A stretch of 31,022 nt of DNA from Promethearchaeati archaeon (GTDB taxonomy: Archaea; Asgardarchaeota; Heimdallarchaeia; JABLTI01): assembly GCA_013166835.1 (NCBI GenBank), contig JABLTI010000022.1, positions 1 through 31,022 on the forward strand, read 5' to 3'. A program made the translations under genes and the position numbers. Positions 2,922-30,798 of the stretch are shown here, one piece after another. Within the stretch, counting starts at the first letter, position 1. Every line of letters begins with the position of its first letter. The notes beneath the pieces were generated by a model that saw nothing but the letters and a program-made list of their open reading frames with translations, searched no databases and was not told the origin of the DNA.

Positions 2922-3155
2922 CTATCTACTTTTTCTCATATTTTTATAGGCGAGAGCTATATCCCGATCCTTTATGGTTTTTCTATTAGCAAATTTTGCA
3001 AGATCTGCAGCATCTAGTGCGAGCTCTTCAGCCATTTCAGTGAGAACATCTCGAAGTTCTTTAGCAGCACTTTCACTAACTAGTAAATTGGTAGTTTCTT
3101 TGATAACACGCTCAATAGGAGCTAATGGGAATTCAGTTTTGCTTCGTCTAGACAT
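2922..3155 (-). CDS. Archaeal histone (HMf-like variant)
   Basis: PLAPIERVIK...VSESA...LA..ANRKTIKDRDIALA aligns with the HMfA/B histone fold (RKT.K..DI motif). Confidence 0.93.
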   Translation of the reverse strand: MSRRSKTEFPLAPIERVIKETTNLLVSESAAKELRDVLTEMAEELALDAADLAKFANRKTIKDRDIALAYKNMRKSR

Positions 3156-3409
3156 TTCGATTCAACTCAAGAAGTTATGAATTAAAAGCTACTTCTCCGG
3201 TTAAAACCATAAATAGAAAATTACTATATAAGGATTCTCTCGAAAAGGTGAATTTTGTCGGAATGATTTCCAAAATGCTCAAAGGAAAAAGAGTTTAAGC
3301 AAAAAAGAAACAAGAAGAAGGGAGAATCCTTCTCGGTAAAAATTAGAAAATAAAAATTTCCACTTTGATAAACGGAGGTATTTTTCTAGGGAAATTTTCC
3401 GTATAATTT

Positions 3410-4096
3410 ATGTTGAATAAGAATTTCCTTCGTATTACTGGAGTTGCAAATATAGCATCTGCTGTATTATTGTTATTATTTTGGTTTTTATAAGCAATTC
3501 TTTTGCCTTTAAACGAAGTTCCCACAAATTATCATTTATTGATTCTTGATCCAAATTGGCTTCTCGTAAACATTCTAGGGGTTTTTGGATTTGTTTTAGC
3601 TTTAGTTGGTATTTTAGGACTATTCTTCAATCAATATAATGATCTAACATGGTATGGAGTAGTAGGTTTCTTGATAACTTTTGTAGGACAAGTATTCTAC
3701 AATGCTGGTATATATTATGAAACCTTTATTTGGCCAATTCTTGCAGCAAGTGATCCTACTCTAGTTGAATTAACTAATGGACCTATTTATTCTAATCCAG
3801 CCTTTTTTGCAATGCAAATGGTTGCAGGAACTATGTATGCTGTAGGTTTTCTTATTTTTGCAATCTCAGTTTTTAAGAGTAAGGCATTTTCTACTAGACA
3901 TACTTCTAAATGGGCTATTCTTCCTCTAGTACTTGGAGTGATTATGTTTATTCCGGGCTTTTTCCCTTACGTAGTACGAACTATAGGAATTGTTGTGTAT
4001 GCGATAGGAATAGTTTGGGTGGGAGTTATCTTAATTAGAAAAGAACCTGCTAAAATTGAAGAAAAAGAAATAGAAGAGAAAGAAGGAGAGGGGTAA
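3410..4096 (+). pseudogene. Multi-pass membrane protein interrupted by an in-frame TAA (or sequencing error)
   Basis: ATG at 3410 gives MLNKNFLRITGVANIASAVLLLLFWFL, then TAA at 3491-3493, then AILLPLNE... continuing in frame into the 3503..4096 ORF with about 5 further hydrophobic helices. Confidence 0.7.
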
Positions 4097-4338
4097 TCCC
4101 TCTAAAGATAAAGAATCAAGTTAAATAATTTCAATATATTTGAATTATCATTAAAAGATTCACACTAGGAATATTGACATTTTTTATTTCAACAACAGAG
4201 CTGCGAACAAGTAATGTTGGTGGTTCAGTAAATGTTTTTCTGAGTGGTTAAATAACACTCTGCTATGGTGATCCATTTCGTAGCCTTCTTTGCTGTCTTT
4301 ACAAATACCTAATTACAATTACACAAGTTCTACTCTCA

Positions 4339-4358
4339 CCTAAATCAATACATTTAGG
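4339..4358 (-). terminator. Hairpin just downstream of the 4367..4846 gene
   Basis: CCTAAAT-caatac-ATTTAGG inverted repeat 8 nt after the stop codon. Confidence 0.35.
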
Positions 4359-4366
4359 ATCTGTGG

Positions 4367-4846
4367 CTACTTTTGAGCTTTGATTTCATTGTATAGGTAT
4401 TCGAGAAGATCAGCAGATTCCTGTCGTATTAGAATACCAAAGATCTTTTCTTGTATTGAACGGGTTTTTTCATAAAACATAACAATGCTTATCGCTACCG
4501 CTTCTGGGATTAAGTCATAGTCTATAAGTCTTTTTTTCAGCATACGAGCTAATCCCTCAAAAAATCCAGTAACAGATATGAACTTCGCATAGGCTTCTGG
4601 ATTGGTTTGAGGTCCATACTTTTGCCAGAAATCATCATAATCTTTCCAAGACCACTTATTATAAATCTCCATCTGATCCAACATTAACTGTTTGTCATAA
4701 GCCTTAGTTTGGTAACTAATAAAAAGTGATGCTTTACGAGAGGTTGTAAAATTCCGAATGGAACGAATCCCCACTATGAAGGCAACAACAATACTGCCTA
4801 CAGCAACAATGATTGAGATGATTTGGAACACTTGGTCAACTTGCAT
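4367..4846 (-). CDS. N-terminally membrane-anchored DUF4760-like protein
   Basis: N-terminal TM helix followed by W.DYDDFWQKYGP..NPE...FFEGLA.MLKK.LID, a pattern I recall from DUF4760-type proteins of Bathyarchaeia and Asgard archaea. Confidence 0.65.
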   Translation of the reverse strand: MQVDQVFQIISIIVAVGSIVVAFIVGIRSIRNFTTSRKASLFISYQTKAYDKQLMLDQMEIYNKWSWKDYDDFWQKYGPQTNPEAYAKFISVTGFFEGLARMLKKRLIDYDLIPEAVAISIVMFYEKTRSIQEKIFGILIRQESADLLEYLYNEIKAQK

Positions 4847-22913: not shown

Positions 22914-24134
22914 ATGGCATTCTTCGAAAAATATAAAGAGCGGACAGAGACCGAGTTACTTGTAGAAGTACGAATGGCAAAAGAACTTGGTATTTATCCA
23001 TATTTCAAAGAGTTGAATAGCGAACAAGGGCCCATTGTAGCCATGAATGGTAGAGAAGTTATTATGCTTGGTTCCAATAACTATCTCGGTTTTACTACAG
23101 ATAAGCGAATTAAGAACGCTGCGAAAAAAGCAATAGATGAATTTGGTGTTGGTTCCACCGGATCAAGATTGCTAAATGGTACAATGGAATTACACGTAGA
23201 ATTAGAAGAACGTTTAGCAAATTTCTTTGGAACGGAAGAAGCTGTTATTTTTTCAACTGGTATGCAAGCAAATCTTGGGGCATTATCATGTTTTTTAGGA
23301 AAAGATGACTGGGTTATATCTGATGAACAAAATCACGCTTCAATTATAGATGGTATAAGACTTGGTGGATTACCATCTAAACACAAGAAAATCTACAAAC
23401 ACAATGATATGGCTGACCTTGAAAGATGCTTAAAGGAGATACCTGAAGGCGAACATGCACTAATCGTTACTGATGGTGTGTTTTCTATGCATGGAGACAT
23501 TGCACATGTAGATGTCATCACAGAATTATCTGAAAAATATGGTGCCGGTGTATATGTAGATGATGCTCATGCAGTTGGTGTTTTGGGTCCAAATGGTAGA
23601 GGTACCGCTCATCACTTTGGCGTCGAAAAGAAAGTAGACATCATAATGGGTACTTTTTCTAAGAGCTTTGCATCTATTGGTGGATATGTTGCTGGTTCAT
23701 CGTCAATTTGCCAATGGATTAAACATCGTGCAAGATCCTTAATATTCAGTGCTAGTGCTCCCCCAGCTTCTGTTGCTTCAGTTATTGCTATTTTAGACAT
23801 CATAGAAAAGGATGATTCCATCCGACAGAAACTTTGGGCAAATACGAAAAGATTACGAGATGGCTATTTAGCTGCTGGATTTGATATCGGCAAATCAGAA
23901 ACACCAATTATACCAATAATTGTTGGAGCAGATATGCCTACATTTTATCTCTTCAAGAATCTCTTTGAAGAAACACCAAGAAGTGTTTATACAAATCCCG
24001 TCCGTGCTCCTGCGGTTCCTGATGGAGGTCAATTACTTCGTACATCTTGCCAAGCATCCTTTGATTTTGACACACTAGATGAAGCTGTTGAGATAATCAC
24101 GAAACATGGAAAAGCACTTGAAATCATAAAATAA
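22914..24134 (+). CDS. Alpha-oxoamine synthase (PLP-dependent), most like bacterial serine palmitoyltransferase
   Basis: GIYPYF, GSNNYLG, GSRLLNGT, FSTGMQANLG, NHASIIDG, DGVFSM.GD, DDAH, PLP-lysine motif GTFSKS, IFSAS. Confidence 0.8.
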   Translation: MAFFEKYKERTETELLVEVRMAKELGIYPYFKELNSEQGPIVAMNGREVIMLGSNNYLGFTTDKRIKNAAKKAIDEFGVGSTGSRLLNGTMELHVELEERLANFFGTEEAVIFSTGMQANLGALSCFLGKDDWVISDEQNHASIIDGIRLGGLPSKHKKIYKHNDMADLERCLKEIPEGEHALIVTDGVFSMHGDIAHVDVITELSEKYGAGVYVDDAHAVGVLGPNGRGTAHHFGVEKKVDIIMGTFSKSFASIGGYVAGSSSICQWIKHRARSLIFSASAPPASVASVIAILDIIEKDDSIRQKLWANTKRLRDGYLAAGFDIGKSETPIIPIIVGADMPTFYLFKNLFEETPRSVYTNPVRAPAVPDGGQLLRTSCQASFDFDTLDEAVEIITKHGKALEIIK

Positions 24135-24268: not shown

Positions 24269-25744
24269 ATGAAGGATACAACCTCTTCAGATGATCTGCA
24301 TGAGGGAGCTAAAGAATCAAGAATTATTGAATTAGCAAGAGTGGGCGAAGCACAAACAACTGAAAAAAAGAACATTCTTTATTGGGCCTTCTATGATGCA
24401 GCGGATACTGTTTTTGCTATGGCCATAATATCAATAACCCTTTTTCAATGGGGCGAATTGATGGGTCTACGAGCAGGCTTTACTTTTGCAAGATCTCACT
24501 TGTTAGTTAGTACTTTTCTGATGATTTCTAATGTTCTCGTAGCAATATTAATGCCCATTCTTGGAGCTCATTCTGATTTAGTCGGAAAAAGAAAACCTTT
24601 AGTAATAATCTTGGGGGTCATTACTATTGCATTTATTCCTCTTATAGCACTCACTATGAAGTTTCTATTGGGTCTCTTAATTTTTCTCATTACGAATGTT
24701 GTCTATCAAGCAGCAAATCTGTATTACGAATCTATGCTTCCCTACATTTGTGATACGAACTCTCGAGCTAAAGTTTCTGCGTTTGGTGTGGCTTTTGGTT
24801 ATGTAGGTACTATTTTTGCTATTTTACTTTATTTCTTATTACCTCGAGGATTTGGCGATGCGACATTAGTTGATGATGTAATTGGTGGTAGTGTTGCACC
24901 ACAAGACATTCAATTAAATTGGGTATACTGGATGTTCATTTTTGCATCCGTTTTCTATCTACTTCTGTTTATACCATTTTTCTTTGTGAAAGAAAATAAA
25001 AGTGAAATAAAAATTACCGAATCCTTTGGTAGAAGAACTAGGAGCACTTTTATTCAACTAGGTCGAACTTTCAAAGAGATTTTCAAAGAAAACAAAGGAA
25101 TGCTGCTATTTCTTGTAGGGTGGTTGTTAATTAACGATGCTGTAGGCACGTGTATTGCTATACTTGTTGATTATTTGCGGGAAGGTTTGGGTCTTGATCC
25201 GACAATTGCGGGTGCCATTTTATTTGGTGGTATTTTGGTTGGTGTTGCGTTCCTCTATATTATGGGTCCAGTAATTGATAGAAGGGGGCCTAAATTTGGA
25301 GTAATTATAACAGCAATTGCTTGGACTATTGGTATTATCCTAACCGTTCTTTCAGGAGTAACTTACAAGACAGTTGTAATTGGAAACCTAACCTATGTAT
25401 ACAAGTTGCGATTTTTAGCATATATTGCTGCAGCAATTTTATCTTTTGGAATGGGTTCAGTTTTTGTTGTAGGTCGACAATTTATACTTGAATTATGTCC
25501 ACCAGAGAAAATTGGGCAATATATGGGCTTTAAAAAGATTTCAGGAAAAGTTAGTGCAGCAATAGGTCCTCTAATTTTCTCAGGAGTTCTCGCTTTAGTC
25601 TATCCTTATGGAAAAACGCTTGCATACCAAATAGCAATTCTCTCTTTACTGGTATTCTTCTTAATTGGTTTTGTTGTTATATTATTCATAAAAAATAATC
25701 ATGCAAAATATCTCAAAGGAGAAAGATTTCCATATAAAGAATGA
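24269..25744 (+). CDS. MFS transporter, UMF1/Atg22-like
   Basis: WAFYDAA, PILGAHSD..GKRK, YESMLP, VSAFG.AFGYVG, GK.SAAIGP; about 12 TM helices. Confidence 0.88.
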   Translation: MKDTTSSDDLHEGAKESRIIELARVGEAQTTEKKNILYWAFYDAADTVFAMAIISITLFQWGELMGLRAGFTFARSHLLVSTFLMISNVLVAILMPILGAHSDLVGKRKPLVIILGVITIAFIPLIALTMKFLLGLLIFLITNVVYQAANLYYESMLPYICDTNSRAKVSAFGVAFGYVGTIFAILLYFLLPRGFGDATLVDDVIGGSVAPQDIQLNWVYWMFIFASVFYLLLFIPFFFVKENKSEIKITESFGRRTRSTFIQLGRTFKEIFKENKGMLLFLVGWLLINDAVGTCIAILVDYLREGLGLDPTIAGAILFGGILVGVAFLYIMGPVIDRRGPKFGVIITAIAWTIGIILTVLSGVTYKTVVIGNLTYVYKLRFLAYIAAAILSFGMGSVFVVGRQFILELCPPEKIGQYMGFKKISGKVSAAIGPLIFSGVLALVYPYGKTLAYQIAILSLLVFFLIGFVVILFIKNNHAKYLKGERFPYKE

Positions 25745-25774: not shown

Positions 25775-26407
25775 TTAACTCAAGATGAGATTTAAGAAAT
25801 ACTCGTGGAATCGCATGTCATCAGTTAGTTCTGGATGAAATGTAGCTGCTAATAATTTTCCTTGCTTTGCAGCAAATATTTCTTCGGAATTTCTTGCTAA
25901 TATTTCCACATTTTTTCCAACTGAGGTAATTACTGGTGCACGAATAAATACTCCTGTAAATGGTTGTTTTCCAATTCCTTCAATGGTAATAGGTAATTCA
26001 AAGGAATCTTGTTGTCTTCCATATTTATTTCGTATAACATCAATGTCCATTAACTCGAGTAAAACTTGTGAAAAATCTTTCACAACATGATCTTTTGAGG
26101 TTTTGGAAAGCATTATCGTTCCAGCACAAGTCCCAAGGATTGCCATGCCATTCTTCACTTTCTCTCTGATTGTGTCTATTAGTTTGTTATCAAATCGCAT
26201 TTCAGAGACAAGTCGACTCATAACGGTACTTTCACCACCAGGAATTATCAAACCATCTAATTGTTCTATCTGTTCTGGTTTTCTTACTAGAATTGTTTTT
26301 GATTTGATTCCTTTCTTTACTAAAACCTCATTCATCATATTAATGTGTTCGAGAACGTCTCCTTGAACTGCAAGAACACCGATTTGAACTTCTTTCTTCT
26401 TTGACAT
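25775..26407 (-). CDS. pdxT: PLP synthase glutaminase subunit
   Basis: GVLAVQGD..EH, PGGEST, GTCAG, RN.YGRQ.DSFE, FIRAP, FHPELT; start overlaps the pdxS stop. Confidence 0.97.
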   Translation of the reverse strand: MSKKKEVQIGVLAVQGDVLEHINMMNEVLVKKGIKSKTILVRKPEQIEQLDGLIIPGGESTVMSRLVSEMRFDNKLIDTIREKVKNGMAILGTCAGTIMLSKTSKDHVVKDFSQVLLELMDIDVIRNKYGRQQDSFELPITIEGIGKQPFTGVFIRAPVITSVGKNVEILARNSEEIFAAKQGKLLAATFHPELTDDMRFHEYFLNLILS

Positions 26408-27381
26408 TATAGATCAGCTCCTCTATCTTGCATTCTTAGTTTCATCTCAGAACCAGTTAGTCCCATCATAGCTTTTTCTTCACTAACCATTTCTTGTGCT
26501 TCAAAAACTACATCTGGACTATCCCAATAAGAAGTAGCTAAGACAACTGCAGAAGCTCTGTTAAGCGGGTCTTCACTTTTGAAGATGCCTGACCCAACAA
26601 AAATTCCATCAGCACCAAGTAGCATCATTTGTGCTGCATCTGCGGGAGTAGTTATTCCACCAGCTGCGAAATTTACAACTGGTAAACGACCGATTTTCGC
26701 TGTTTCCAAAACAGTATCAAATGAACAGGTCATTTTTCGAGCTTTAAACATTAATTGTTGATAATCTTTGACTTCGTATAAACGTTTGATTTCATTGATT
26801 TCGTTAGTTACAAGTCTGATATGATGAACTGCTTCAGCAACATTACCGGTTCCCGGTTCTCCTTTTGTTCGTATCATGGCTGCACCTTCGTCAATTCGAC
26901 GTAATGCACTACCAAGGTCTAAAGCTCCACAAACAAATGGTGCAACAAAGTCCCATTTCCAAATGTGCCTAAATTCATCAGCTGGTGTTAGAACCTCTGA
27001 TTCATCAATGCAATCAGCCCCTGTTTCTTGAAGTACTTTTGCTTCATAGGTGTGCCCAAGTCGACACTTGGCCATAACAGGAATGGTAATTGCATCGAGA
27101 ATATCCATAATAATCGGTATAGACGCTGGACGCGCAACACCACCAGCTCTTCTTACATCTATGGGTAACTTGTCAAGGACCATTACTGCAACTGCTCCAG
27201 CATCTTCTGCAATGTGAGCTTGCTCAACAGAAGTAACGTCCATAATGACACCACCCTTCGTCATTCTAGCGAATCCTCTTTTAACACGATTCGTGCCACG
27301 AACTACATCTTCTTCATATGCTGTTCGATGAGGTATTTCACCTTTCTTCATGTAGGATCTTTCAGAGAATAGATTCTTCAT
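26407..27381 (-). CDS. pdxS: PLP synthase lyase subunit
   Basis: [58 protein letters not shown]; GAGGAG RBS upstream. Confidence 0.97.
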
Positions 27382-27402
27382 TTAGGAAAATCTCCTCGAT
27401 AC

Positions 27403-27424
27403 TATACAAGTTATAACTTGTATA
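27403..27424. promoter_or_regulatory. Perfect 22-bp palindrome, candidate operator
   Basis: TATACAAGTTATAACTTGTATA is its own reverse complement; lies 22-43 nt upstream of the pdxS start. Confidence 0.75.
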
Positions 27425-27443
27425 TTAAAGTTGAAACATTAAC

Positions 27444-27451
27444 TTTATAAA
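27444..27451. promoter_or_regulatory. Candidate TATA box (TTTATAAA), possibly bidirectional
   Basis: Matches the archaeal TTTAWAWA consensus and is self-complementary; on the minus strand it would put the pdxS start site near 27420, inside the palindrome. Confidence 0.45.
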
Positions 27452-27513
27452 CTTTATTCGAAATATTGAATATTAGATATCTAACGATTGAAGTTGCCAA
27501 AGGGAATGATGAA

Positions 27514-28959
27514 GTGACAGAAAAGATTGTTTGTAAAAACTGTCAAGCAGAATTAAATCCATTACAACGTTCTCATACATGTCCCCAGTGCAGTGCAACT
27601 CTAGTTGAATATAATTTTGATTCAACAGAAACGGGTCTAGTAGTTAAAAATACCGAAAAAGGAATTTGGCGTTATCGTTCTTTTCTACCTCATTTCGAAA
27701 AAATAATTTCTCTTGGAGAGGGACAAACACCTTTACGCAAAGCTTTGCACTTATTCCAAGACAAAGTTAATTTGTTTTTGAAAATCGAAGGCTCAAATCC
27801 TACAGGTTCATATTTAGATCGAATTTCCCCTTTAATGGTATCTGATGCCATGAATAGAAATATGCAGTCTTTGGTTTGTGCTTCAGATGGAAATCTTGGG
27901 GCTTCCTTAAGTGCTTATTGCGCAGCAGCTCAAATCAAATGCTTCTGTGTTGCACCTAAGAGTACTTCCCCAGAGAAACGAACTCAAATGCTAGCTTATG
28001 GTGCAGAGGTTATTGATTATGGTGAAACTATTGATGACAGTCTTGATCTTGCTGTTAAAATGATTGAAAAAGGACGTTATCAAGCGACTCCTGAATTTAA
28101 TATTCTGACAATAGAAGGAGCAAAAACTGTTTCACTAGAAATTGTTGAACAACAAAACACATTTGGATCTATACAAGAACTCGAATATATTATAGTCCCA
28201 ATGGGAAGTGGTGGCTTGCTTTATTCTATTTGGAAGGGATTAAAACAAGCAAAAGAATTCAAACTAATACCATCAGATGTCAAATTTCCCAAAATAATTG
28301 GTGTGCAAGTTGAAGGGTATGATTCCATAACAAAATCCTTTGACGACGGAAATTCAATTCAGGAGATAACAAAGAAAAATATTAGCAAAAACAAATTAGC
28401 AGATGCTATAATGGTAAGAAACCCAATCTTCGGTGAAAAAGCAGTTCAAAGTATCAAAGAAAGTAATGGGATAGCAATTTCTGTTTCTGAAAAAGAAATC
28501 ATTGCTGCAAGCAAATTATTAGGGAAAAAGGAAGGAATATTTGCAGAATTAAGTAGTGCCACAGTAATTGCTGCAGTGGATAATTTACTGAAAGAGAAAA
28601 TACTACCGCAAAATGCTACTATGTTAGCGATTATAACTGCGAGCGGAATGAAGACTTCACGTGCATTTCAAAAAAGCACCTCTCAAGATAAAAAAGTGGA
28701 ATCACTTAGAAGTATGGGAACTAAAATAGAGATTCTAAAAACAATCAATTCCAAGGATAGCAATTTCGGATATGGAATTTGGAAATCTCTGGGGCAAATG
28801 ATTTCTTTACAAGCAGTCTATCAACACCTAAAGGAACTACAAATAAGAGAGCTTATAGTTGAAGTTGAAACAAATGATCGTCAAAAAAGATATTCAGTTA
28901 CAACGAAAGGTAAACAATTAATTAAGAAAATGAACGAGTTGGAAGAATTACTTTCATAA
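27514..28959 (+). CDS. Zn-ribbon + threonine-synthase-like domain (no PLP lysine) + C-terminal winged-HTH; putative regulator
   Basis: CKNC...CPQC, GIWRY, SLGEGQTPL, NPTGSYLDR, ASDGN, EGAKT, VPMGSGG, EGIFAELSSA; C-terminal TKIEILK...GYGIWK...QAVYQHLKELQ..ELI...KRYSVTTKGK. Likely GTG start at 27514 (ORF opens at 27466). Confidence 0.88.
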   Translation: MTEKIVCKNCQAELNPLQRSHTCPQCSATLVEYNFDSTETGLVVKNTEKGIWRYRSFLPHFEKIISLGEGQTPLRKALHLFQDKVNLFLKIEGSNPTGSYLDRISPLMVSDAMNRNMQSLVCASDGNLGASLSAYCAAAQIKCFCVAPKSTSPEKRTQMLAYGAEVIDYGETIDDSLDLAVKMIEKGRYQATPEFNILTIEGAKTVSLEIVEQQNTFGSIQELEYIIVPMGSGGLLYSIWKGLKQAKEFKLIPSDVKFPKIIGVQVEGYDSITKSFDDGNSIQEITKKNISKNKLADAIMVRNPIFGEKAVQSIKESNGIAISVSEKEIIAASKLLGKKEGIFAELSSATVIAAVDNLLKEKILPQNATMLAIITASGMKTSRAFQKSTSQDKKVESLRSMGTKIEILKTINSKDSNFGYGIWKSLGQMISLQAVYQHLKELQIRELIVEVETNDRQKRYSVTTKGKQLIKKMNELEELLS

Positions 28960-29035: not shown

Positions 29036-29485
29036 TCAGAAATAATCTCTCATTACTTCTTGTACCCACTCGGGAGTCTGTGCATCTTCTCTCATATCAA
29101 AATCTGGAAAATAAGGTTTAATATCTAAAATGGGGGTTTCATTGATAGCATCTAGACCTTTTACTGTTAGAATATTTTCTTTTACACTAACTATTTGGAC
29201 AGCAGTGATGCCAATTGGATTAGGACGATGGCGAGCTCGTTGAGCAAAAATTCCAATCTTTGGAAGTTCTTCTCGTTCTTGTGGGTGTCGTACGAGATGT
29301 CTTTCTTCGATATAAGATGCTTTGTGCATGTAAAAAACAATTATTGCATGAGTAAATTCTTCAAGTCCAATAAGTCCTTTAGCATATTCCTCATTGACAA
29401 ATATTTCAGAAATTTCTTCTCCCCATTCATAATTGTGAGGAGAAAGAACTTCATTTCTTACAAAACCAATTGGCTTAATATTCAT
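29036..29485 (-). CDS. trmO: tRNA m6t6A37 methyltransferase TrmO/TsaA family
   Basis: IKPIGFV, GLEEFTH, GIFAQRARHRPNPIG, GLDAINETPILDIKPY. Confidence 0.9.
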   Translation of the reverse strand: MNIKPIGFVRNEVLSPHNYEWGEEISEIFVNEEYAKGLIGLEEFTHAIIVFYMHKASYIEERHLVRHPQEREELPKIGIFAQRARHRPNPIGITAVQIVSVKENILTVKGLDAINETPILDIKPYFPDFDMREDAQTPEWVQEVMRDYF

Positions 29486-29519
29486 AAATGGACCTCCAGA
29501 AAAACAAAGTAAGACTATT

Positions 29520-29978
29520 TTAGAATTCTATTTTAGCTCCACCAGCTTCTAGGTGTTGCTTATCGTGTTGCCATAAATCGAGTATTCGATCTGTTCGATA
29601 AAATGATTTTTCATCTTCTACAGTTTCTGGGAGTTTTATTAGTTCTTCAAATATGCTTAATACTTTATATCTTGTTTCTTTGAATTTTTCTTTAGCTTCC
29701 TTGAATGAAACATCTTTCATCTTATCAAGTACATAATCATTCCACTCTGAATATTCCATTTCCATACTTTGAAATTCAAATTTGCATTGATCAAGTGAAT
29801 CCTTCATTTTGAATTGACATATTTTCACAAACTCATCATCCCAAGACCAAAGATGAAGAAGTAAATCTCTTGTTTTCCAACCATTTGGAAGAGTGAAAGA
29901 TTCATCTAAAGCTAAAATGAATTCAGTGGTTTTCTTCATGTTTTTAATTTTCTTTTCTAAAGAAATTTTTTCATTCAT
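29520..29978 (-). CDS. DinB-superfamily four-helix bundle protein (ClbS/DfsB-like)
   Basis: GWKTRDLLLHLWSWD and C-terminal HDKQH (H-x3-H), consistent with the DinB three-histidine site. Confidence 0.7.
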   Translation of the reverse strand: MNEKISLEKKIKNMKKTTEFILALDESFTLPNGWKTRDLLLHLWSWDDEFVKICQFKMKDSLDQCKFEFQSMEMEYSEWNDYVLDKMKDVSFKEAKEKFKETRYKVLSIFEELIKLPETVEDEKSFYRTDRILDLWQHDKQHLEAGGAKIEF

Positions 29979-30090
29979 AATACATCACAACTAATTATTA
30001 CAAATCTTTATCAAATGAAGGTTTTCATCAATAGGAATTTTTAATTAAAGAGAGAATATACTTCTTCGTCAAGAAAAGGACTTGGACTCA

Positions 30091-30798
30091 ATGAGTGAAA
30101 AAGAAATAAAGAAAAGAGTTTCTGAATATATTAAAAGACTGAAATCTGATAATCTCGAGGAAAAACGAGAAGCAGCCTGGGAGCTTCAAAATCTAGAAAT
30201 GAAAGCTAAAGATGCAATCCCAACACTTGTTGAAGCAATTAAGGATGAAGACTGGGCAGTAAGATCTATGTCAGTTTTAGCTCTTGGAAAATTAAAATAT
30301 GACAAAGTAAATTCTGATTTAATTCATATACTCTTAAATGATGAAAGTGAGGAAGTTCGATCTTCAGCTGTAGAAGCATTAGTACGAATTAGACTCAGTA
30401 ATATTAATTCTCTTTTAGTCCAAGCAATAAAGGATAAACATAAATTAGTGCGTGAGCAAGTTGTTTGGGGTTTAGGAGTAATCGGTGAAGAAGCTAAAGA
30501 AGCAATTCCAGAAATTATTGAATTACTCAAAATGCCAGATGAAGGATTAATACACTCTATTGCTGCTTGGGCTTTAGTAGAACTAGGTGCAAGCGAAGCA
30601 ATAGAACCACTTACAGAAACTATGCTCATGACGGAATCTGATTTAATTCGTTTCAGATTAGCTTTGTCGCTTGCTTACCTTGAAGAAAGTGAGGGTGAAG
30701 GCTTAAAGGAACTTCGTAAAATGAAGGATCATGGGAGATTATCTCCTCTTGAGGAATCGCAATTCGAAGATTTTCTATCATTTAGGTGCTATAAGTAA
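30091..30798 (+). CDS. HEAT (PBS-lyase-like) repeat protein
   Basis: Repeats of AIPTLVEAIKDEDWAVRS..VLALG, DESEEVRSSAVEAL, DKHKLVREQVVWGLG; ATG at 30091. Confidence 0.88.
   Translation: MSEKEIKKRVSEYIKRLKSDNLEEKREAAWELQNLEMKAKDAIPTLVEAIKDEDWAVRSMSVLALGKLKYDKVNSDLIHILLNDESEEVRSSAVEALVRIRLSNINSLLVQAIKDKHKLVREQVVWGLGVIGEEAKEAIPEIIELLKMPDEGLIHSIAAWALVELGASEAIEPLTETMLMTESDLIRFRLALSLAYLEESEGEGLKELRKMKDHGRLSPLEESQFEDFLSFRCYK

Follow-up and report, generated by a model that had tools for sequence, protein, structure and literature searches.

The window analysed here is a 31,022-nucleotide stretch of contig JABLTI010000022.1 (positions 1 to 31,022) from the assembly GCA_013166835.1 of a Promethearchaeati archaeon of the Heimdallarchaeia. 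Our subject is a gene within it whose predicted product joins a threonine synthase (ThrC)-like domain to a C-terminal winged helix-turn-helix (wHTH), and which stands beside pdxS and pdxT, the genes for the two subunits of pyridoxal 5'-phosphate (PLP) synthase. An earlier note on this DNA, made from the letters alone, had proposed that this gene encodes a sensor controlling vitamin B6 synthesis, and we followed up that proposal by computational analysis. The locus holds the following features, given in window coordinates.

25775-26407, minus strand: pdxT, glutaminase subunit of PLP synthase (TIGR03800, 5.8e-65, 218.7 bits against a cut-off of 105.55; PF01174, 6.7e-56).
26407-27381, minus strand: pdxS, lyase subunit of PLP synthase and predicted target of the regulator (NF003215, 6.9e-129, 429.5 bits against a cut-off of 395; PF01680, 1.5e-91).
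27382-27513, no strand: divergent intergenic control region, with a footprint from eight aligned loci.
27403-27424, no strand: candidate operator O1, a perfect 22-nt palindrome, TATACAAGTT-AT-AACTTGTATA, from an inverted-repeat search.
27427-27440, no strand: candidate second operator O2, AAAGTTGAAACATT, in which the core is repeated imperfectly, 20 bp centre-to-centre from O1, picked out by eye.
27444-27451, no strand: candidate palindromic TATA box, TTTATAAA, picked out by eye, which could serve both divergent promoters and is partly conserved (T64, T67, A69).
27514-28959, plus strand: predicted regulator gene, 481 aa, with a zinc ribbon, a Lys-less ThrC-like PLP-fold domain and a PadR-like wHTH (profile matches, AlphaFold2 (AF2) model and Foldseek).
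27532-27591, plus strand: Cys4 zinc ribbon, C7, C10, C23 and C26 of the 481-aa form, or 23, 26, 39 and 42 in a 497-aa numbering (homolog alignment).
27706-28638, plus strand: fold-type II PLP-dependent-enzyme (PALP) domain, candidate ligand sensor and dimerisation module (PF00291, 2.6e-69, 234.2 bits against a cut-off of 35).
27814-27816, plus strand: TTA, encoding Leu at the Schiff-base lysine position (translation and HMMER alignments).
27880-27894, plus strand: ASDGN loop, ASTGN in ThrC (HMMER alignments and homologs).
28195-28215, plus strand: VPMGSGG glycine-rich loop, opposite the cofactor-phosphate loop of ThrC (HMMER alignments and homologs).
28699-28956, plus strand: PadR-like wHTH (PF03551 family profile, AF2 model and Foldseek).

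The reading frame of the regulator gene is open back to a TTG at 27466, and its conserved start is the GTG at 27514, backed by homolog lengths of 477-493 aa and by a GTG or ATG at the same place in related loci, which gives a protein of 481 aa. It lies head-to-head with pdxS-pdxT across 132 bp, the divergent arrangement first read from the letters, and both PLP synthase genes score above their NF003215 and TIGR03800 cut-offs. An Rfam scan of the region returned a sub-threshold snoRNA match inside pdxS and nothing else, and thus no riboswitch.

The departure from an enzyme lies in the ThrC-like domain. The codons at 27796-27822 (aat cct aca ggt tca tat tta gat cga) translate to NPTGSYLDR, and in HMMER alignments with the solved threonine synthases 6cgq, 2zsj and 1uim the Leu encoded by the TTA stands opposite the Lys of NPTGSFKDR, which we count on the printed alignment as Lys61 of T. 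thermophilus ThrC. In the same alignments ASDGN lies opposite ASTGN and PMGSGG opposite the PVGNAGN glycine loop, so that the three motif readings on which the earlier note had built (Leu in NPTGSYLDR, ASDGN and a retained VPMGSGG) are confirmed. The Schiff-base Lys is essential in fold-type II enzymes. Across the query and its 120 best homologs (121 sequences), the corresponding column holds Arg in 76, Leu in 35, Lys in 3, Phe in 2, Met in 1, Gln in 1 and a gap in 3, which means that 115 of the 121 carry another residue, as had been predicted for fusions of this kind. Because the column is replaced throughout the family, the loss in the window protein is, by this alignment, not a sequencing accident, and the pattern argues that the loss is selected for. 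The wHTH is present in every complete sequence among these homologs, and G247 and G249 of the glycine loop are found in all 121. The N-terminal Cys4 ribbon, which had also been listed as a feature of the fusion, is indeed there, with all four Cys in 115 of the 121 and gaps in the remaining 6, but it is not special to the fusion: the same Cys are invariant in nine Lys-bearing archaeal ThrC proteins, so the ribbon was inherited from the ThrC subfamily.

To see what else separates the fusions from the enzyme, we compared 24 fusions column by column with these nine Lys-bearing archaeal ThrC sequences, which come from genomes of the same kinds. Among the 64 columns that do not vary in the nine enzymes, 35 are retained in at least 90% of the fusions, and exactly three are lost in the 24, namely the Lys, the Gly three residues after it, and one Arg (Arg160 of T. 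thermophilus ThrC by our own count on the HMMER alignment), whose position is occupied by Thr, Val, Ser or Ala in every fusion. The Thr of ASTGN is Asp or Asn in 24 of 24, other pocket positions carry new conserved residues such as Ser in place of His, and both the Asn of S-x-G-N and the glycine-rich loop for the cofactor phosphate are kept. Because recognition of O-phosphohomoserine appears lost while the residues that hold the cofactor are retained, the pocket looks remodelled for binding rather than decayed.

By score the window protein falls short of threonine synthase (TIGR00260, 147.7 bits vs 167.1; NF004170, 352.4 vs 421), and it also departs from that family at the Schiff-base Lys and at the ThrC-invariant Arg and Thr. 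Membership of the fold-type II superfamily is clear from PF00291 (234.2 bits vs 35) and from Foldseek matches to ThrC structures at E 1e-26 to 1e-23. It is conceivable that the protein is still an active enzyme of the ThrC family, working through another residue or on another reaction, with a wHTH that is structural or moonlighting; its full-length similarity to the NF004170 "threonine synthase" model, at 352 bits, would fit this, as would Odin and Baldr relatives that pass the cut-off of that model and the three fusions that keep the Lys. However, the residues found at the Lys position (Arg, Leu, Phe, Met or Gln) are unlike a substitute catalytic residue, the protein is below both ThrC cut-offs, a separate Lys-bearing ThrC paralog (NPTGSFKARG, contig C172) is encoded in the same genome, and the recognition helix is conserved together with the matching palindromes described below. 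We therefore consider enzymatic activity of this kind extremely improbable.

The full-length AF2 model (predicted local distance difference test score, pLDDT, 86.3) consists of a ThrC fold and a wHTH joined by a low-confidence linker at residues 388-400, and its top Foldseek match is the threonine synthase 6cgq (E 1.3e-26, target-normalised TM-score, TMt, 0.84). The matches also include 1d6s, a K41A mutant of O-acetylserine sulfhydrylase (OASS) with PLP bound as external aldimine, and because this mutant holds PLP, a Lys-less fold-type II pocket can still do so. The protein is predicted to form a homodimer (ipSAE 0.76 as the median of three runs vs 0.00 for the best control), with an interface at residues 67-163 and 333-389, which is to say in the PALP domain. 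The runs share at least 70% of contacts and the partner pLDDT is at least 85; among the calibration structures, the same mark was attained for 20 of 30 solved homodimers and for 1 of 23 single chains. As ThrC dimers have already been solved, the prediction may reflect likeness only.

For the C-terminal domain, of about 86 aa, the family is more informative than the single protein. PF03551 is matched by 24 of 25 aligned C-terminal domains at E <= 0.01 (best 1.3e-12), and a profile of the domain finds PadR-family regulators among Protein Data Bank (PDB) sequences from E 5.8e-7, while the C-terminal 87 aa used as a single query gave no meaningful match to PDB sequences. The AF2 model of the domain (pLDDT 91.5) has the layout alpha1-alpha2-alpha3-beta-beta-alpha4, and Foldseek places it with RosR, PadR-like and MarR-type regulators, several of them solved with DNA, at query-normalised TM-scores (TMq) of 0.7-0.83. 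A recognition-helix motif, A-x-Y-Q-H-L, is invariant across the family (AVYQHL in the window protein). At the family level the assignment to PadR-like wHTH domains, judged from profiles and models, is solid, and the C-terminal DNA-binding domain that had been proposed from the translation is thereby identified as PadR-like. In sequence profile and fold the domain resembles PadR-family and RosR-type regulators; in contrast to classical PadR proteins, which are about 100-180 aa long and dimerise by their own C-terminal helices, here the wHTH is appended to a 390-aa enzyme-like module for putative dimerisation and sensing.

We then asked whether the genomic setting agrees with a regulator of B6 genes. 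In the clade of the window, divergent pdxS-pdxT accompanies the fusion in 7 of 7 related loci (61-93% identity) as well as in the window itself, with gaps of 134-182 bp in the seven, and the same seven genomes and the window were recovered again in a scan of the Asgard phylum. The O1 palindrome is invariant in all eight of these loci, which makes it an operator candidate shared among orthologs, as the proposal had called for. It is unique in the 3.56-Mb genome, where the next-best site has 4 mismatches. When the eight intergenic regions are aligned, 31 of 36 invariant columns fall within 27401-27439 and the flanks diverge; O2 lies inside this footprint, with the invariant columns A47, G49-T51, A54 and C56-T58. 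Read by eye, the operators seem to be flanked by the candidate TATA box on one side and the pdxS start on the other, and to stand just upstream of the putative TATA box and B recognition element (BRE) of the regulator gene itself. Further regulon members were not seen in the window's own genome (84.75% complete), as a search with the 22-mer allowing up to 6 mismatches gave no close second site, and the tandem-site pattern described below gave 4 matches over that genome vs 24 for a reversed control. Two further matches were set aside: an exact core copy, CAAGTCGACACTTG, inside pdxS at 27057-27070 is probably due to chance and recurs only in the 93%-identical relative L013, and an exact match of the Bathyarchaeia type (below) in the own-genome locus L007 lies inside a coding frame and was likewise treated as chance.

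Outside this clade the regulon takes a different form. Our locus counts rest on the best 80 of 275 confirmed fusion relatives, which comprise 7 loci of the pdxST type and 73 others, 70 of the latter with at least 900 bp of downstream sequence. In 62 of these 70 (61, plus L023 by a Pfam check) the fusion adjoins a gene for an energy-coupling factor (ECF) S-component of family PF07155, mostly as the next gene on the same strand, with PF07155 matches of 3.8e-32 in Bathyarchaeia and 96-132 bits in Asgard loci. The expected linkage to pdxST thus holds in all eight loci of the window's clade but in only 2 of the 73 others, where the importer-like gene mostly takes its place. PMC9997740 lists only three characterised prokaryotic B6 importers, PdxU (COG4720, PF07155), PdxU2/HmpT (COG4720, PF07155) and P5PA.

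Palindromes accompany this second arrangement too. The exact sequence YAAGTNNNNACTTR occurs in 23 of 130 loci, mostly as Heimdall intergenic sites and duplicates, together with the site inside pdxS that the window shares with its closest relative. Outside the Heimdall clade there are 7 exact sites in five Asgard loci (L120, L123, L125, L129 and L130), all directly upstream of the PF07155 gene, and one stray match in L056. By eye, tandem [C/T]AAGT-N4-ACTT[G/A] sites lie between a TTTATAT-like box and the transporter start in 11 of 12 Asgard loci, the exception being L116. In Bathyarchaeia the operator has different arms, TAGTATAGTT-NN-AACTATACTA, and sits downstream of the fusion gene, in the gap before the ECF S-component gene. 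The exact sequence ATAGTTNNAACTA is found in 38 of 73 loci, usually as the sole site in 10-15 kb, and in 33 it follows the fusion gene at a distance of at most about 60 bp. The two kinds of palindrome are alike in their arms of 10 nt, their centre of 2 nt and their core, AGTT-N2-AACT. No enrichment of Heimdall-type cores (CAAG-N6-CTTG and variants) was seen upstream of the fusion genes of Bathyarchaeia. That the conserved palindromes co-vary with the regulator clades is indirect evidence for the predicted sequence-specific DNA binding.

The two loci with pdxST outside the window's clade are especially informative. L040 and L073 carry, in this order, the fusion, pdxS, pdxT and a gene resembling aminoimidazole ribonucleotide (AIR) synthase, and sister loci carry the fusion, the ECF S-component and the same AIR-synthase-like gene; in L040 as in L073, the palindrome of the Bathyarchaeia type stands immediately upstream of pdxS. 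Because pdxST fills the transporter slot in L040 and L073, one and the same operator can precede either the synthesis genes or the importer, which are thus interchangeable. No PdxS was found in G001, G005 (98% complete) or G151 (100% complete), all with the transporter-linked form, and it is present elsewhere in the genome in G010 and G002. The window's own genome, at its 84.75% completeness, has pdxST, no PF07155 match and no match to the PF08543 kinase.

A true thrC is also an occasional neighbour. In L079, at 115-1425 on the minus strand, a genuine thrC (TIGR00260, 359 bits; NPTGSFKDR) lies divergent beside the fusion, and similar genes occur in L063, L076, L083, L086 and L092. This adjacency may be a duplication relic or may mark a further regulon member. 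It also bears on the idea that the fusion regulates threonine or homoserine metabolism, sensing O-phosphohomoserine or threonine, with the pdxST and transporter neighbourhood incidental or secondary, an idea to which the closeness of the domain to threonine synthase lends itself as well. However, the ThrC-invariant Arg is lost in 24 of 24 fusions and the ASTGN Thr is replaced by Asp or Asn, positions to which we presume phosphate-binding roles, and an acidic residue at the latter should disfavour a phosphate ester. Neither thr, hom nor asd genes recur beside the fusions, and the conserved operators face pdxS or the PF07155 gene rather than thrC. Moreover, ThrC is itself a PLP enzyme, a class that PMC5320631 places within bacterial MocR regulons, and its adjacency can be a relic of duplication. 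We therefore regard a threonine regulator as very unlikely.

Taken as a whole, we propose that the gene at 27514-28959 encodes a one-component regulator of vitamin B6 supply, and we put the probability of this reading at roughly 0.72. The control of B6 genes by a Lys-less fusion, which was the core of the earlier note, is supported by the clade-wide operators, by the PF07155 linkage and by pdxST in the transporter slot; from comparative genomics we judge the interpretation strongly supported, although not by biochemistry. A number of points weigh against it. The window protein alone stays below the Pfam gathering cut-offs for its wHTH (HTH_45, 23.2-24.0 vs 25.5; PadR PF03551, 19.1-22.7 vs 27), three family members keep the Lys, and adjacency to pdxST is limited to one genus-level clade and 2 of 73 other loci. 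A true thrC lies divergent beside the fusion in about 7 of 73 loci, all in Bathyarchaeia, which allows a possible link to threonine. HmpT was reportedly first predicted as an importer of thiamine precursors, and B6 is only a putative substrate of archaeal PF07155 proteins. The promoter elements and several operator sites were read by eye, and the 10-base core CAAGTNNNNACTTG is not enriched in the window, with 3 matches vs 1.35 expected and 19 of 100 shuffles reaching 3. The roles of Arg160 and Thr85 (the ASTGN Thr) of T. thermophilus ThrC in binding the substrate phosphate are presumed. The FastTree grouping described below includes the wHTH columns, uses hand-chosen rows and is stated without support values. 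Finally, pdxT and pdxS are in part matched, at 90-99% likeness, by contigs from the RNA libraries X19 and X20, which may come from DNA or from relatives; these contigs show neither transcription starts nor strand, and none covers the regulator, an absence that carries no meaning.

How might such a regulator work? We suggest that its ancestor was a threonine synthase of archaea in which catalysis was lost and to which a PadR-like wHTH was added. Dimerisation of the Lys-less fold-type II domain, as in ThrC, would place two wHTH domains on the 22-bp palindrome, which in the window genome would form part of an O1/O2 operator pair between the candidate TATA box and the pdxS start. Binding of a vitamer in the Lys-less pocket would increase operator binding, so that the ligand-bound dimer would most likely repress pdxST, or in other lineages the importer, and probably its own gene when B6 is plentiful, and would leave the DNA under B6 shortage. 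PLP is the most likely ligand, either bound without a covalent link or joined to a free amino acid as an aldimine. Retention of the cofactor-phosphate loop and of the Asn that contacts O3', with the Lys and the ThrC-invariant Arg gone, speaks for a phosphorylated vitamer. We consider PLP as the ligand moderately likely, and repression as the sign of control moderately likely as well.

A variant of this proposal would keep the regulator of B6 genes and change the signal, which might be an unphosphorylated vitamer, an adduct of PLP with an amino acid that reports amino-acid status, or a precursor of the pathway such as ribose 5-phosphate or glyceraldehyde 3-phosphate, or would have the apo-form activate its targets, as in bacterial PdxR. 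The pocket is remodelled and not merely disabled, with Asn or Asp for Thr, Ser for His, and Arg at the Lys position in most Bathyarchaeia, which leaves room for another ligand; as far as its title goes, 1d6s shows OASS K41A with PLP only as the amino-acid aldimine, and the titles of cited references describe PdxR as an activator of pdxST. However, retention of the glycine-rich phosphate loop, of the S-x-G-N Asn and of the T/S-x-G-x-K end motif favours a phosphorylated pyridine ligand, and each operator is placed after the candidate TATA box and before the start codon of its target, a geometry that is usual for repressors in archaea. Another ligand or the opposite sign is in our view unlikely, even if it is the most credible of the alternatives, and PLP-dependent repression is the form of the B6-regulator proposal that we prefer.

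The comparison with bacterial PdxR is instructive. PMC5320631 gives pdxST, pdxK and pdxU as members of PdxR regulons, with PdxR often divergent from its targets, and reports MocR regulators as absent from Archaea. Like PdxR, the fusion is a one-component protein with a PLP-enzyme-like domain and a winged helix, and behind its conserved palindromes lie pdxST and a gene of the PdxU family. Unlike PdxR, which combines an N-terminal GntR wHTH with a fold-type I, aminotransferase-like domain, it carries a C-terminal PadR-like wHTH on a ThrC-like domain of fold type II. The Pfam matches of the window protein are limited to PALP and a PadR/HTH_45-like domain at the C terminus, with GntR and Aminotran_1_2 unmatched. 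MocR proteins reportedly keep the PLP lysine, which the fusion lacks. By domain content it is thus no PdxR/MocR protein, and by a regulon of pdxST and/or a pdxU-type gene with a conserved operator it works like one; the comparison of domains indicates that the two are analogous, not homologous.

With the archaeal Zn-ribbon threonine synthases (NF006050/PRK08197-like; NF004170/PRK05638), the fusion shares the fold, the Cys4 ribbon, 35 of 64 invariant columns and the domain that forms the dimer interface, but it differs in the lost Lys and Arg, the replaced ASTGN Thr, the extra wHTH of about 86 aa and the sub-cut-off scores. Archaea have other vitamin regulators derived from enzymes, namely ThiR (a ThiN-like domain with a helix-turn-helix, for thiamine) and RbkR (a riboflavin kinase with a wHTH). 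As reported for these two, an enzyme domain would here be reused as a vitamin sensor controlling synthesis and transporter genes, although the vitamin, the sensor fold and the DNA-binding family are different. In open-access papers and bioRxiv, supplements excluded, we found neither a ThrC-wHTH regulator nor an archaeal B6 regulator, and an earlier mention elsewhere is possible. The one mention in a survey of fused archaeal proteins is of a cysH-thrC fusion. By this comparison, the ThrC-wHTH fusion would be a new one-component regulator, derived from an enzyme and sensing a ligand, with a fold that has not been known to serve this role before.

The earlier note had mentioned similar fusions in other archaea, and the family proved to be widespread: a ThrC-wHTH fusion occurs in 62 of 301 sampled Asgard genomes, and the 275 confirmed relatives come from the genome contigs searched. 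Copies with more than 60% identity are confined to the genus of the window, where 8 of 10 genomes besides G000 carry one. A FastTree tree of 38 sequences separates the fusions from canonical ThrC and divides them into a Bathyarchaeia-type subclade, mostly with Arg and with three Lys forms nested inside, and an Asgard subclade of the Leu type. The Lys-keeping fusions (the metagenome proteins P0113, P0115 and P0117) read NPTNSFKDR or NPTSSFKDR and are nested in the Arg-bearing clade; their Lys may be ancestral or may have been regained, and it might bind PLP covalently, as in MocR. Contigs L062 and L073 are typical Bathyarchaeia-type loci in metagenome-assembled genomes (MAGs) labelled as bacterial (Desulfaltia and Limnocylindrales), which are probably mis-binned. 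A search across Thermoproteota, with a fusion from Bathyarchaeia as the query, matched 171 of 301 genomes at E <= 1e-70 and was rejected as a family count, as canonical ThrC is mixed in, many of these proteins matching residues 1-370 only.

Existing annotation reflects the ancestry of the domain. The expectation that pipelines would call these genes thrC came true for Bathyarchaeia and Joint Genome Institute (JGI) copies, which are labelled "threonine synthase", but not for Heimdall copies, which NCBI names "pyridoxal-phosphate dependent enzyme". The NF004170 "threonine synthase" model aligns over the whole fusion, wHTH included (profile positions 2-441 of 442), and its cut-off is passed by Odin and Baldr relatives (457 bits). 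Because the profile spans the wHTH, NF004170 appears to model the fusion family itself, and it seems to propagate the enzyme name. An origin of the model in Sulfolobales found no support, its cut-off being unmet in 14 of 14 control genomes, Sulfolobus acidocaldarius included.

The AIR-synthase-related gene deserves attention alongside the transporter. It encodes a protein of about 337 aa (PF00586 and PF02769; for example L084, 6882-7895, plus strand), is present in 47 of 70 non-Heimdall loci and follows pdxST in L040 and L073. Among NCBIfam models it comes closest to HypE (123.9 bits) and ThiL (91.8 bits), falling far short of the cut-off in each case, and a true ThiL above cut-off is encoded elsewhere in 5 of 5 genomes checked. 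We regard the protein as a candidate B6-related ATP-dependent enzyme. Alternative B6 kinases, according to PMC9997740, remain to be found.

It is tempting to extend the proposal to the whole family. The fusions would then be a general B6 regulator of Asgard archaea and Bathyarchaeia and an independently arisen, fold-type II counterpart of PdxR, the PF07155 S-components would be B6 importers, the AIR-synthase-like protein would be a salvage enzyme and possibly the missing kinase, and the forms with Arg or Leu for Lys would sense free PLP non-covalently. This extension in its entirety is tentative, and we think it less probable than its failure in at least one part. If it is true, two open items of B6 annotation, the archaeal PF07155 S-components and the AIR-synthase-like gene, would be filled.

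The locus matters for several reasons. It offers a candidate for B6 control in archaea, which the literature we searched does not describe, with a defined operator, a regulon and a putative pseudoenzyme sensor. It may be a case of convergent evolution in which two unrelated PLP-enzyme folds were each recruited as sensor for the same cofactor. It corrects the recurrent "threonine synthase" label on many family members, on which an NCBIfam model was apparently built. It would also allow annotation by association of archaeal B6 importers and a possible salvage enzyme, both flagged as gaps in PMC9997740, and it predicts Asgard and Bathyarchaeia lineages that need external B6, which is relevant to cultivation.

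Other genes in the window surround the locus. A transporter of the major facilitator superfamily (MFS), ATG22-like (PF07690, PF11700), lies at 24269-25744 on the plus strand, convergent with pdxT; no operator was seen before this gene, and a homolog has the same relative position in 5 of 7 related Heimdall-type loci. On the other side, a TrmO-like tRNA methyltransferase N-terminal domain (29036-29485, minus strand; PF01980, 1.3e-31), a small protein with a weak DUF1706 match (29520-29978, minus strand) and a 238-aa open reading frame that is repeat-rich by eye (30082-30798, plus strand) follow the regulator gene, and no link between the genes at 29036-30798 and the B6 locus was seen. Close to the B6 locus, at 22914-24134 on the plus strand, is a gene for a PLP-dependent acyltransferase of the BioF/Kbl family, whose best NCBIfam match is serine palmitoyltransferase (NF047600, 484 bits, below the cut-off of 640); its product is a candidate sphingolipid-type enzyme in a Heimdall-group archaeon. 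In an uncultured archaeon contig, L021, the fusion gene adjoins a fragment of an AAA+/RFC-like ATPase with intein splicing and LAGLIDADG domains (2992-4374, plus strand).

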